From: Eledone cirrhosa | Lineage: Eukaryota | Reading direction: 5' to 3' | Assembly: GCA_964016885.1 (NCBI GenBank) | Contig: OZ024745.1 | Span: 70,494,001 to 70,558,000, forward strand | DNA length: 64,000 nucleotides | Part shown: in pieces, positions 5,341-63,278 of the stretch | Numbering within the stretch: the first letter of the stretch is position 1 | How the letters are laid out: the number at the start of each line of letters is the position of its first letter | The notes under the pieces: generated by a model | Told to the model about the DNA's origin: nothing | What the model saw: the letters and a program-made list of their open reading frames with translations, nothing else | The model's database searches: none | Translations under genes and position numbers: made by a program

Positions 5341-5538
5341 ATAACGAAGGCAATGTGGTAAGGAACCAGGTGGACCATAACGCACCAAAGTACTCAATAC
5401 TTAGGGTAGTAGAGTGGGTAATAGGAACCAGTAAGACCCCGACGGCTGAGCTCAAGCCGTTTCGACGACTAATTCTGGACCAGAATTAGCCGTCGAAACG
5501 GCTTGAGCTCAGCCGTCGGGGTCTTACTGGTTCCTATA
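5341..5538. mobile_element. Family A fold-back mini-element (3' half of a hammerhead on both arms)
   Basis: Palindrome centred at ~5479 (CTGG-A-CCAG). Arms carry GAAAC-GGCT..AGCC-GTC-GGGG. Flanked by TA tracts. Confidence 0.85.
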
Positions 5539-5635
5539 TATATATATATATGTGTGTGTGTGTATGTGTGTACTATTATTATAATAATTATTATTATTAT
5601 TATTATTATAATAATTATTATTATTATTATAAAAA

Positions 5636-5821
5636 TTGGCAGTATCGGTGGAGAGTCGGACGCCATGCTTTCCAGCATAGTTACGTCCCTTTACGATCTG
5701 AGTTCAAATCCTACCGAGGTTGACTTTGTCTTTCATCCTTACGGGGTCGATAAAATAAAGTACCAGTAATGCACTGGGTAATCGCTGGCCTTGTGCCAAA
5801 AGTAGAAACAATTATTATTAT
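5636..5821 (+). mobile_element. tRNA-derived SINE (family B, ATT tail)
   Basis: TGGCAGTATCGG A-box-like and GAGTTCAAATCC B-box, then the CTTTCATCCTTACGGGGTCGATAAAATAAAGTACCAG body and an ATT tail. Multi-copy in this window. Confidence 0.85.
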
Positions 5822-8800
5822 AAAAAAGATTCATAGACAGTGGAGGCGAACATAGAACATAGAAAATGATACACAGACGAGACAATGAAGGTAGCAATGG
5901 GCAGATAAATATGAAAGAAAGTACATGACCCGGTCATAGCCTTATATATATGTGTGTGTGTGTGTATGTGTGTGTATGGGGGGGGGGTAATAGATAGATG
6001 TGAATATCGTCCTATTCAAGACTTTATAAACATGTGCAGCCATTTCCAAGCGTTATACTAACACAGAAATAAACTTTTATAGCAACCTAATATTTCTTTG
6101 GTATGGAAGTGTTTTCCAGTTTATGTCTTACGTTTTACTCTCAGAAAAGTCATCACCGTAGTGCACAGCATGTAATTCAAATGATATCGGAATGAAGATA
6201 ATTAATAATATAGACCAAGTGTTTTCATTAACTGTTTTATATGTCTAACACCTGAGTTGTTATTTTACGGAGCAGTATAAACGTCTCTGCCGATATGTCT
6301 CTAGCCCTATGTGTACGGTTAAGATATTCTTTATATGCGAGCATGTGTATATTTGTTAGTGTCTTTACTTGATTGGATTGATACATGTGTGTAAATGTCG
6401 CACTGTGGGCCTGATTAGATGTATACCCATATCAATATGTCTACGAGAATTGCGAGCTAGTTGTTGGTATGTTTATTTTTAAGAAAGTTAGTCACCTTAA
6501 CTTCGTTACTAAATATATACAAATTAATATTTCAAAAGAAAGAAGACCATTTATGAAATGAAAACGCAGATGAATCTTTGTTTCATTAGGATTTCATATT
6601 TCCTTTATTAGACATCTTTACGAAGTCTATGGAAGAATTTATTGATTTTAAAAGAAACGAAATCTCCCGAAGAGCTATGTTATGGCGAAACTAATGAAAT
6701 TGTAACAAAAGTATATTCGCTTAATATATTTATACTCAAATGTGAGTGTACGTGACATAATTATATGTCAGTGTTTGTCTATCTATGTCATAGATAGAGG
6801 GCTTACACATATAATTTGATTTCAGGGAAAGGTAATTTAGATGTTCATATAAAATGTGTTAAAAATAGAAACAATACTTCGAAGACATACATTTCCTTCA
6901 TGCTCACATCCAGTGCATTAATAAATTTCAAAAGTAGAAGAGCAACAGAATGATAGAAACGTAAATATGTTACACAAATGCCTTTTAATATTTAACTACA
7001 TATATTCATGTCCTGAATTCAAATCCCACCGGCTACGACGACATAAACAATTAGACTCTCTTATGGTCCGGAGTACATTTTTGCATGCTTATTAACATTA
7101 ACAAATACATTCTGGGAATTTTAGCTATAATTCCTCACACTGCCTAATCGACTAATCGATTTCATTCTTGTGGGGCATCCCCCAGCTAAATCAATATAAG
7201 TTATCGTATGTAACAATAAAACTACTGTTCATGGTTTCCTTTCTAAGCCAAAACAACATTGACTAAATAGGCTCATGACGAAAGGTATAATAACCTACCT
7301 CACCCAATACACACACCCTTTACAAGACAGTAACGTTTACGTTTATGGAGATTTGGCTAATATTTTGTTATCTCGTAAAAAATGAATGGAATTGGCAGCC
7401 GACGTTTTCCATAATCAATGTTCCGGTTGTTCAATCAATAAAACTGTCTATTCGGGAAATTGACGTGCAAGTAGTTGAGCATCTCAAAGAACCGTGTAGT
7501 CCTAACTTAATTATTTGGGTCATCCAGCAAGTCCCTGTGTTTAACAATATTGCTCCGTTGAATTACAGGTACAGTCCATTCAAAAAGCTTTCATTTTACG
7601 TCTATGCAATTTCTAACATGCTGCGTCCCCAGCTGGCTCTTAAAGAGGTTTAGTGCAATATATGGCGTAAAATGACCTCTAACTTAGACAATATATACCA
7701 TTTATTTACAGAGTTGGATTGAGTAAATCTGTTGTTACATTATTGTAGCTATGGTTAGATTTAACTTCTAGAAGAAACCATTGTTCTCCACACAGAATGG
7801 AACTAAAAGAGATCACATCAATAATGAAAGAAAACTAAATAGAACATTTTTAATAGACTGGGAAGCCTTCAGGTTATATTCTCTTTTTGAATCTATTTTA
7901 CCATTAGTTTTTAATTGAATTAGATTTACGTAACTTTTCTTTCCCTATTATTTTATAGAGGGAAGAAAAGGAAAAATATGTTTTAATAACTATTTCGGGA
8001 AAGATTAATATTGTAGCCATTTTCGTAGCCATCTATAGTGTTCTATCAGCTAATATGAATACATACACACACACATATATACGGATATATTTGTGACTAT
8101 ATATACGTGCGTGGGAAAGTGTGCGTGTATCATACACATTCTTTTCTGAAAAAGTCATTTTCTTCATGACTCTCGGAAAAAGAATTTAAATTGTAGACAC
8201 ACATGAATTCACTCGCAAACGGGCACACACACACACACGCACATACCATATACATAAATATATGGGCACAGAACAAAGACAATGATAAAAACAACGGAAA
8301 AAACATATATATATATATATATTTATATATATATATATATATATAAATTTTTACGTTGTTTTCTTTCCATTGTCTTTGTCCTGTGCTATTTTGAATATAT
8401 ATATATGTGTGTGTGTGTGTGTGTGTGTGTGTGTGTGTATGTGTGTGTGTGTGTGTGTGTATGTGTGTGTGTGCGTGTGTGTGTGTGGGTGTATGTGCGT
8501 GGGTGTGTGTGTGTGTGTGTGTGCGTGTGCGTGTGTGTGTTCAGAAAGGGAGAAATAATCATTCATATCAGTTTTTTAAATATAGAAGGAACAAATCAAG
8601 ACATACTACATTGAAAAAAGAATAGTTATACAAATCTATACCCTGCCTGTGGCTGATGAGATGTCAGCCAGGTAGACATTACGCCTCAAGCATTGCCCTT
8701 TTCAGAGATTGTACTATGTGTTATCCATATGATCTGTCAACCAACAACACTCTGCTTTACTCGCCACGTGTTACAACCTAAATATAGAATAATTGAAAAA

Positions 8801-8952
8801 GTGTATAAAAAATTATGTGTTTTTTTTTTTTTTACTTTCGAAATATTCCCTGCCTGTCACTTTTGCGGACTAAATAATTAATATTCAAACCTGAAGGTTT
8901 TCCTATTCCCGTAGAATTTCTGACCCATATAGAAAACGAATAGAGTTTTTTG

Positions 8953-9141
8953 TAATAATTGTTTCTACTTTTGGCACAAGGCCAGCAATTATCCCAGTGT
9001 ATTACTGGTACTTTATTTTATCGAACCCGTAAGGATGAAAGGCAAAGTTAACCTTGGCGGGATTTGAACTCAGAACGTTAAGGGACGTAACTCTTCTGTA
9101 AAGCATGACGTCCGACCCTCTATCGATACTGCCAAACCACC
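8953..9141 (-). mobile_element. tRNA-derived SINE (family B)
   Basis: Reverse complement of the family B sequence. Confidence 0.85.
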
Positions 9142-61135: not shown

Positions 61136-61363
61136 CCTGGAGTTGCAACCGATAGATAGTGTTAGCAATTGGAAAGACCAACGGAAACATTGTTCCCTCG
61201 GTCCGATTTGACGAAAGTCGATCGTTCCTTTTATATATGTCACAACTCACTACAACTTACCCTCTACTATTCTTTTCTCACTACAACATTCTCACCGTTT
61301 CCATCTCACCGCCACTGCTCACTATCATCTATCTTTCTATTGCTTCTTTAATTTTTCACTCTA

Positions 61364-61399
61364 TTTTCTTATGAAGGACTAGCGTCCGAAACGTTAAGA
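61364..61399 (+). ncRNA. Minimal PLE-type hammerhead with core mutation
   Basis: TTTT-CTTATGA-AGGAC-TAGC-GTCC-GAAA-CG-TT-AAGA, after a pyrimidine-rich tract and with a tail to TA. Confidence 0.6.
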
Positions 61400-61895
61400 C
61401 TCTTTTCCTACGATAAAAAGAATGAAAATAATATATTTATTTTGTGTACTGCTTTGTCATTTCCGTTTGCCTTTTGCATATATATATATATATATATATA
61501 TATATATATATAGAGAGAGAGAGAGAGAGAGAGAGAGAGAGAGAGAGAGAGAGAGAGAGAGAGAGAGAGAGGGGCGAGATGGAGAGAGGTGGACTGACAG
61601 ATAGATTGATAGATAGAAGGTTGTCTGATATATATTCCCATTCTACTAAATCTTCAACATAAAGTTGTAGTAGAAAACATTTTCCCATTGGTTGACAGTC
61701 CGTGGAAATGAACGCCATTCCAGTAGCCTGCAATGCGAACTCCTTAATCACACAAACATGCAAATATAATTTAACATTTATATGAAATCAGTTCTTCATT
61801 ATGAGATAACAATGAATGCCACAACCCTATCTCTCGTTACTGATGTTAACAAATCACCTAGACACAAGATAATTGTCGTTTTTTCTCTTCATTTC

Positions 61896-62190
61896 CATCA
61901 GTAGTAGTAGTAGTAGTAGTAGTAGTAACATCAGTAGTAGTAGTAGTAGAAGTAGTAGTAGTAGTAATAGAAAAAGTAGTAGTAGTAGTAAAAGTTGTAG
62001 TAGTAGCAGTAGTAGTAGTAGTAGTAGTAGTAGTAGTAACATCAGTAGTAGTACTAGTAGTAGAAGTAGTAGTAGTAGTAGAAAAAGTAGTAGTAGTAGT
62101 AAAAGTCGTAGTAGTAGCAGTAGTAGTAGTAGTAGTAGTAGTAGTAGTAGTAGTTATAGTAAAAAAAGTAGTAGTAGTAGAGTTAGTAGT
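61896..62190. repeat. (AGT)n microsatellite with ~110-bp higher-order duplication
   Basis: The interruption series CATC, AGA, AGAAAA, AAAAGT(T/C)GT, AGC occurs twice in the same order. Confidence 0.85.
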
Positions 62191-63073
62191 GAGGGGTTAG
62201 TGGTGCACATCTAACGTTACTAGTGCTGTGCCCTCAGTCGACGCTATTGATGCAGCTGTCAGATTTATTTGCTGCATATGTGCAACATGCGCATTGGCTG
62301 CAGTTAGTCAAGGTATTCTTGACTAAGATGTTGTTAGCTATATTTCTTTCAGGTAATACATCTTCATTATATATATCTCCCTATCTCTCCTCCTGCTACA
62401 CCTCCTCCCGTCTCTAGTTATCCCCCCCCCTCTTTCTTAATCACTACCTTTCACCATTTTTCTCGTATCTCACCTCCTCCTCCTTTAGATCTCAGTCTCT
62501 AAACACTTTCCCCCTCTTTTTTCTCTCACATATTCTCTCTGTCTTTACTCCTCTACTCTTCTAGCTCTATTTTCTAGGCTGCTCTTTCCTCCCTATGTAT
62601 ATATATATATATATATATATATACATAAATAAATAAATAAATAAATATATATATATATATATATATATATATAAATAAATAAATAAATATATATAGATAT
62701 ATATATATATATATATATTTATTTATTTATTTATATGTAAAAACATATATGTATATGTGTAGATACATATATGTATCTACACATATATATAAGTACAATA
62801 AATATATATTTATATATATAATATACATATATATATATATATAATATACATATATATATATATATATATATAATATACATATATATACATATATATATAC
62901 ACATATATATATACATATATATATATACATATATATATACACATATATATATACACATATATATATATACACATATATATATATATATACATATATATAT
63001 ATGTAGATACATATATGTATATATGTATATACATATATGTATATATGTAGATACATATATGTATCTACATATA

Positions 63074-63278
63074 TAGGAAAAAGTATGACCCCGACGGCAG
63101 AGCTCAAGCTGTTTCGACGGCTATTTCTGGACTATTTGAGTCCAGAAATAGCCGTCGAAACGGCTTGAGCTCTGCCGTCGAAGTCATACTTTTTCCTATT
63201 TCCCACTCTACTACCCTAAGTATTGAGTACTCTGGTGCGTTATGGTCCATCTGGTTCCTTACCACAATTCCTTTGTTA
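63074..63278. mobile_element. Family A fold-back mini-element
   Basis: Same family, centre ~63136 (CTGGACT-ATTTG-AGTCCAG). Confidence 0.85.

Follow-up and report, generated by a model that had tools for sequence, protein, structure and literature searches.

Mirror-image insertions of a Penelope-like element in Eledone cirrhosa are centred on a predicted promoter start

A stretch of 64,000 nucleotides from the TA-rich, 3.0-Gb genome of Eledone cirrhosa (contig OZ024745.1, positions 70,494,001 to 70,558,000; hereafter the window) harbors several small inverted repeats of one kind, family A, whose arms mirror each other and meet at about the same place within a predicted hammerhead ribozyme. How such hairpins come about is the question raised by this locus. 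A sequence-only reading of the window had proposed that the inverted arm is either made anew at each insertion, when reverse transcription stalls in the ribozyme, or that the entire hairpin moves as a unit with homogenization of its arms. Judged by their sequence features, the family A hairpins are 5′-truncated insertions of a Hydra-clade Penelope-like element. The head-to-head pairs are best read as products of twin priming on a single RNA that begins at the predicted promoter start: the hairpins were probably built at each insertion from two separately primed complementary DNAs (cDNAs) of one RNA, which ran off its 5′ end at this position and were joined head to head.

Positions within the element are given in a reference numbering on the strand opposite the RNA, in which base 1 is the first tail base after (TA)n and CTGGAC occupies 132-137, followed by T138. 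Site 1 denotes the tail end (reference 1) and site 2 the TTCC/TA boundary (reference 78-81). Family A is represented in the window by five hairpins, two solo copies and one tail-only copy:

5344-5534, hairpin of subfamily A1 within (TA)n: tailed arm 5344-5480 (RNA sense on the minus strand, reference 1-137), tail-less arm 5481-5534 (RNA sense on the plus strand, reference 135-81), arms overlapping by 1 nt
10466-10664, hairpin, older A2-like: tail-less arm 10466-10536 to reference 137, tailed arm 10537-10664 to 126, which lacks 11 nt of the tail-less arm
11870-12060, hairpin: tailed arm 11870-11998, filler of 4-8 nt, tail-less arm to 12060
20374-20565, hairpin: tail-less arm 20374-20426, filler of 2 nt, tailed arm 20429-20565
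63076-63276, hairpin of subfamily A2: tail-less arm 63076-63134 (to reference 139), filler of 4 nt, tailed arm 63139-63276 (to 138)
36542-36681, minus strand, solo tailed copy: reference 1-140, hot spot joined directly to (TA)n
37594-38054, minus strand, long solo copy of subfamily A2: reference 1-466, with the element 3′ end, a complete ribozyme and part of the 3′ untranslated region (UTR)
55581-55651, plus strand, tail-only copy: reference 1-72

All five hairpins named by the sequence-only reading are present, their short arms end at TTCC/TATA in 5/5 cases, and the solo copy at 36542-36681 breaks at the same spot, as had been described; the tail-only copy, the eighth of the family, had been overlooked. 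Folding of the long copy likewise puts the hot spot in hammerhead stem II, at a hairpin inside that stem. Other statements held in part. While all five centres lie at or beside CTGGAC, the five junctions are all different, and the supposed fixed turn is only a hot spot. The variable segment is mirrored exactly within three of the five copies (5344, 11870 and 63076), but is off by one base at 10466 and by two at 20374. A hammerhead is indeed predicted, but with the core UUGANAA, a U3-A8 variant, instead of a literal CUGANGA.

The identity of the element is read directly from its longer copies, which continue through the UTR into an open reading frame (ORF) of ~3 kb with reverse transcriptase (RT) and C-terminal endonuclease motifs. 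ORF pieces of three loci (L222, L224 and L233) align along homologues of 700-713 aa and contain RT motifs (YRDD) and a C-terminal YIG domain, and all ORF copies examined are broken. Because Pfam gave no RT or GIY-YIG match to the ORF and PDB no match, the assignment as RT plus GIY-YIG endonuclease rests on motifs. The unit measures ~3.1 kb including the pseudo-long terminal repeat (pseudo-LTR), slightly over the <3 kb of the Hydra clade, and ends in (TA)n; in near-full-length copies the tail continues into the 5′ UTR and ORF start, a pseudo-LTR formed by partial tandems. According to the available text of PMC8557442 (this and the other papers are cited here for those parts of their text that were available), Hydra-clade elements share the size of ~3 kb, the order of RT and GIY-YIG-type domain, DKT, RWK (here RWR, one conservative change), a CxCX5C linker (here CNCPDRSTC), CxxC (CNLC) and CxH (CKH) flanking conserved E and N residues, and the lack of CCHH, as well as a hammerhead, the (TA)n target, partial tandems and an inverted 5′-truncated copy with a one-sided tail. 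The last two features, published also in PMC3846280, occur here in 74/75 pairs. Differences are the tail of 77 nt in contrast to 30-40, the U3-A8 ribozyme with its long stem II, and the predominance of ~138-nt stubs with a sharp common end, which the available text of PMC8557442 does not describe.

The element is abundant. At least 37,172 arms match one 21-mer exactly genome-wide, DNA picked by position contains 46 elements in 1.064 Mb, and a range of 30-70 per Mb leads to an estimate of about 10^5 copies. Membership in the non-LTR retrozymes was considered and rejected: the stubs lack the catalytic core and are inverted pairs or solo copies, not tandem units with a complete hammerhead. One homologue of the element's protein, P0075, is labelled as coming from a Gammaproteobacteria metagenome bin and is probably animal contamination.

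To describe the ends of the copies we used the window together with 100 stretches of 10 kb picked by position (sample U) and 58 copies picked by tail sequence only (sample T; 60 minus L167 and L191, which repeat the window). End counts exclude these two, eight edge-cut, spurious or duplicate entries, bystander copies and 14 copies of an older subfamily that is poorly fitted by the references. The copies sit in (TA)n and have two fixed outer ends, one per arm: in 74/75 pairs one arm starts at site 1 and the other at site 2, 77 nt apart, and the remaining pair resembles two adjacent insertions. The inner ends differ between the arms. The tail-less arm is longer by at least 5 nt in 20/75 pairs and the tailed arm in 15/75. 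Asymmetric pairs (tailed/tail-less) include 126/137 at window 10466, 83/138 in L080, 473/1592 in L135 and 238/2933 in L233, the latter with a tail-less arm longer by about 2.7 kb; other long pairs end at 333/2093 and 2200/192. Since the tail-less arm is the longer one in so many pairs, it was not simply copied from the tailed arm. Moreover, a tail-less arm was found alone (L121), and in L260 a template jump on the tail-less arm is absent from its partner. That both strands of a target can be used in this way has a precedent in vitro: both were cut and then extended by a Penelope-type protein, with synthesis beginning at two sites on the RNA (PMC11167929).

Among 179 arms, 133 reach position 130, of which 119 stop at 130-145 and 14 pass. 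The stops centre on 137-138 (43/119), i.e. the ends are concentrated as the earlier proposal of a common centre had it, though not at a fixed point and with variable junctions. Genome-wide, 5,228 of the 37,172 exact arms reaching 137 continue to 148, a lower bound since the added bases must match too. The 75 pair junctions comprise 42 with filler (a count inflated by mutations near the arm ends), 24 with microhomology and 9 blunt ones, and the commonest type occurs three times. An extra A follows 10 of the 11 ends assigned to 141. TGAA follows CTGGAC in 13/95 arms, a base found in only 3/61 long arms. A junction of 138 to 132 without microhomology recurs in the common haplotype, in both mirror forms and several subfamilies (L098, L137, L143, L204, L213, L216, L297, L300 and others). 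In L164 (1502-1760), an 81-nt junction filler derives from an older subfamily of the same element, which suggests that another RNA or cDNA was captured during joining. A second cluster of inner ends lies at reference 72-93, a region that holds site 2 and the stem I base (14/179 arms and three long arms; L080, L085, L137, L175, L180, L197, L199, L210, L244, L251 and L260); here one cDNA may have run into the second, or synthesis may have paused at a structure.

The modal stop position was set prior to any scan for promoter motifs. The complete copy in the window allows the hot spot to be placed on the predicted ribozyme and promoter:

37663-37780, minus strand, predicted type I hammerhead: stem I 5′ strand 37770-37780, U3-A8 core 37763-37769
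37751-37758 pairing with 37710-37717, minus strand, stem II of this hammerhead: inner hairpin 37736-37742 with 37721-37727
37684-37706, 3′ part of this hammerhead: GAAA at about 37702-37706, stem III 37686-37701, GUC cut site 37684-37686
37748-37755, minus strand, TATA-like box: TATTTATT at -31 in A2, overlapping the stem II 5′ strand
37720-37726, minus strand, initiator-like TTAGTCC (YYANWYY): predicted +1 A at 37724, which is reference 138 and the modal arm end

In subfamily A1, the TATA-like box is TATTTAAA at -29. The modal stop is the best combined TATA and initiator site among 1,809 positions in A1; it ranks first of 344 in A3 and sixth of 2,912 in A2, and the initiator is intact in 32/34 complete copies. 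A promoter inside the pseudo-LTR has been demonstrated for Drosophila Penelope (PMC2377424). As to the ribozyme, sequence and fold predict a type I hammerhead with U3-A8 core in the pseudo-LTR, a variant described for Penelope-like elements (PMC4209133), and Rfam returned no hammerhead among the matches listed (150 of 205). The core reads UUGANAA in 31/34 complete copies and CUGAGAA in 3/34; the latter sub-lineages (L219, L273 and L277) place C3 opposite A8, and their ribozymes are probably weakened. The variable segment corresponds to the stem I bulge and marks the subfamilies. An older subfamily (L033, L094, L095 and L257) differs in its stem II sequence, turns at the equivalent position and carries AGT at the predicted +1.

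We thus envisage that the endonuclease would cut both strands of (TA)n and that each 3′ end would prime at one of the two sites. The RNA would start at A138, at the initiator 29-31 nt past the TATA-like box in the pseudo-LTR, and most templates would therefore offer only 138 nt from site 1 or about 60 nt from site 2. Host end-joining would seal the two cDNA ends, and upstream-extended templates, such as the 3′ pseudo-LTR of a long, tandem or circular RNA, would yield long arms on both sides. The centre of family A would then lie in stem II only because its promoter overlaps stem II.

Long arms speak to the nature of the stop. Among 30 loci chosen for a tailed arm beyond 199, 16 had traceable inverted partners, 15 of which reach 130; 0/15 stop at 130-145, in contrast to 57/63 tail-less arms overall (p about 1e-11). 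Elsewhere, a stopped partner leaves the other arm free (2200/192, 1835/110). The stop is thus common to both arms of a locus, and the barrier belongs to the template molecule. A second hammerhead hairpin family, family B, offers a comparison. It has 13,394 exact arms (5,458 forward and 7,936 reverse, unequal by strand), a canonical CUGAUGA core and two fixed outer ends (L301-L330), and a related hairpin is found in the window:

20005-20163, hairpin related to family B

Among 30 family B arms, 16 end in the 5 nt leading to the A of CCAGATT, one ends at +8 and 13 pass, whereby the anchor sequence conceals earlier stops. Family B stops at a TATA and initiator site of its own, with TATAAATA at -30 or -33; this site is located at the 5′ edge of the ribozyme, outside stem II.

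Several observations weigh against an RNA that simply starts at 138. The ends spread over 130-145, and some are templated to 142-150. A cap signature was not seen: the base that opens the filler beyond 138 is G in 9 cases, C in 6 and T in 2, with no enrichment of C. The family A TATA box is imperfect, with one or two mismatches, and also serves as a stem II strand. In one duplicated event (L283/L284) the tailed arm is long and its partner ends at ~137, and L184 ends at 143/305. Counted by eye, 12/18 near-full-length arms continue past 138 in the pseudo-LTR upstream; many long templates therefore do not start at 138, and tandem or circular templates are needed. In L161 and L196 the two arms belong to different known segment types and possibly stem from two RNAs. 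Other hammerhead families showed no clear hot spot in samples of 4-26 arms each, too few to generalize from. Finally, the available text of PMC11167929 reports no strand difference in start site, while here the sites are strictly one per arm.

Part of these points would be accommodated if two cDNAs were primed as proposed, but on a longer RNA, and if the centre were a roadblock, namely the hairpin inside stem II, which the element's protein may clamp like the template boundary of telomerase and which would stop both enzymes on molecules so blocked. The ends at 134-143 follow the 3′ strand of the inner hairpin, some hairpin exists in A1, A2 and A3, some ends are templated beyond 138, and a clamp could be all-or-none per molecule, which fits a stop common to both arms. 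However, with -3 to -5 kcal/mol the inner hairpin has little strength, and the stronger stem II below it gets passed. On a second passage, only 6/18 arms come to a halt. In family B, the stops fall at the 5′ border of the ribozyme, downstream of a perfect TATA box, and the rank of the TATA and initiator site would have to be a coincidence in two families. We regard a roadblock as a fair rival, but as less likely than a template end.

Still less probable is that a cDNA stalls in the ribozyme, snaps back and copies itself, by fold-back or self-priming, to TTCC/TA. Such an origin would explain why the two inner ends lie at most 4 nt apart in 40/75 pairs and why the arm ends correlate (rho 0.39), and in some loci (L192, L106) the filler is a short snap-back copy; PMC3846280 likewise proposed self-priming for junction palindromes. 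Against it stand the 20/75 pairs in which the tail-less arm is longer, in some cases by kilobases, the fixed site-2 end within (TA)n, the solo tail-less arm of L121, the unshared jump in L260, solo copies that join the hot spot directly to (TA)n, the stop common to both arms and the family B stop outside stem II. Its main escape is that later deletions at the palindrome centre could mimic the asymmetry. The stalling version of the sequence-only reading is therefore not upheld, although its broader idea, that arms are made anew at each insertion, is supported.

That the arms of a locus resemble each other does not require exchange between them. We measured arm kinship by distances and locus-private variants instead of a tree because arms of 52 nt hold too little signal. 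The variable segment is identical between the arms in 47/73 pairs, counting bystander pairs; shuffling gives a mean of 10.2 and at most 20. Same-locus arms with the same segment differ by a distance of 0.039 and arms of different loci with the same segment type by 0.038; 43/46 locus-private variants are found on one arm and 3/46 are mirrored. Similarly, 11 long pairs have 3/76 variants common to both arms, and their own-arm mismatch (2.0-4.4%) is close to or at the bottom of what is seen between loci (2.2-6.1%). Mirroring is a subfamily-level property without homogenization: with no excess similarity within loci and few mirrored variants, the arms share one source and then age independently. 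RNA editing was rejected as a cause of arm differences, since, read in RNA sense, A>G (11) and T>C (14) changes are similar in number, and the GAGAC variant recurs as a point change.

The loops lead to the same result. The exact loop of the 5344 copy occurs at 527 loci, about 1.4% of the exact arms, and such identical loops at distinct loci had been put forward as a sign of unit mobility; the first 100 of these loci, however, divide into 60 A1, 38 A2 and two mixed, and the loop is also found on several mirrored haplotypes and, in L257, heads an arm continuing into the ORF start. Among copies picked by a rare tail variant, almost every junction is distinct, and an arm-specific variant present in 160 copies is divided, in the 30 loci examined, between tailed (12) and tail-less arms (18), again with many junctions. 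Lineages with junction, haplotype and arm asymmetry in common, as expected of an independently mobile (MITE- or SINE-like) hairpin, were not found. The loop is remade, not inherited. Although the 527 loops, the 40 loci with 97-100% identity to the 5344 copy (itself counted) and the three mirrored variants could suggest a ~190-bp hairpin that is mobile as a unit, with arms homogenized by gene conversion, this is very improbable in view of the private variants, the absence of excess similarity within loci, the small share of the loop and its presence on both subfamilies. Identical junctions with shared flanks or close neighbors occur in L283 and L284 (C1:247.9 and 249.2 Mb), L074 and L137 (988 and 1231); these look like local DNA duplications, and are the only identical copies that look inherited. 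Three further long inverted repeats in the window have arms of 259-519 nt and are unrelated to the family A references:

30261-31725, long inverted repeat
31820-33505, long inverted repeat
38355-39664, long inverted repeat

Priming of two cDNAs on one RNA also bears on how complete copies may form. In 7/19 loci near the ORF start, chimeras contain cDNA to 132-141 followed by sequence of the same polarity from inside the ORF (L331, L334, L335, L337, L338, L345 and L348, of which L331 and L348 share acceptor 2896). Six of the seven jumps take place at the GTCCAG motif (137-139), and four loci end again at 122-141. These chimeras look, as expected, like a jump of the enzyme from an RNA 5′ end to an RNA 3′ end. 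We tentatively raise, as speculation, that Penelope-type elements prime near their own RNA 5′ end, in the manner of retroviral strong-stop synthesis, with both target strands primed at the two fixed sites close inside the transcription start, and with cDNAs that run off the cap and then join or jump to an RNA 3′ end. Failed cDNAs joined head to head would be the hairpin stubs; a jump, ideally to a ribozyme-cut 3′ end repeating 138-98, would copy the element body, and a second jump would regenerate the upstream TATA box and the pseudo-LTR. The seven chimeras fit this scheme, but only 2/179 ends lie at the ribozyme cut (94-100), which also led us to reject ribozyme-cut RNA as the main template, and no end-to-end duplication of 138 to 98 was found among the loci examined. 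If true, the scheme would provide one account for tail, inverted repeats, partial tandems and ribozyme.

In L1 twin priming, the two target strands prime two cDNAs on one RNA and the inversion is sealed by microhomology; there, the position of the second site varies and the cDNAs cover non-overlapping stretches. In contrast, both sites are fixed in the element studied here and the same RNA stretch is copied twice. Green anole Poseidon, analyzed in vitro, shares cutting and extension of both target strands and two internal RT start sites that define the tail; it prefers AT-rich targets, and ribozyme cleavage is dispensable (PMC11167929). It differs by the lack of strand bias in start site, compared to one site each in 74/75 pairs here, and cDNA joining, inversion centres and RNA start are not addressed in the available text of that study. 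Adineta vaga Penelope elements and Drosophila virilis Penelope share head-to-head inverted pseudo-LTRs with junction palindromes and, inside the pseudo-LTR, TATA plus initiator or initiator plus downstream promoter element; in the accessible parts of these papers the palindromes are read as self-priming on an antisense template, with a centre untied to the transcription start (PMC3846280, PMC2377424). Animal non-LTR retrozymes are likewise small type I hammerhead repeats from Penelope pseudo-LTRs, but form tandem units with a complete ribozyme, whereas the present stubs lack one half and are inverted or solo (bioRxiv 10.64898/2026.07.22.740005). A literature search, which covered few subscription papers and no supplements, found no paper linking Penelope inversions to twin priming or transcription start, and the origin of inverted repeats, one-sided tail and pseudo-LTRs is called open in the available text of PMC8557442, PMC2377424 and PMC11167929.

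Penelope-like elements are the closest retroelement relatives of telomerase, and a family of ~10^5 copies records the products of their insertion. Hairpin-shaped repeats that resemble microRNAs or miniature inverted-repeat transposable elements in such genomes can be by-products of insertion and not mobile units, which calls for caution in their annotation. The insertion record suggests that two primers share one RNA and that the template ends at the predicted promoter start, and the centre at this predicted start site offers a testable explanation for the mirror-image shape of Penelope-like elements.

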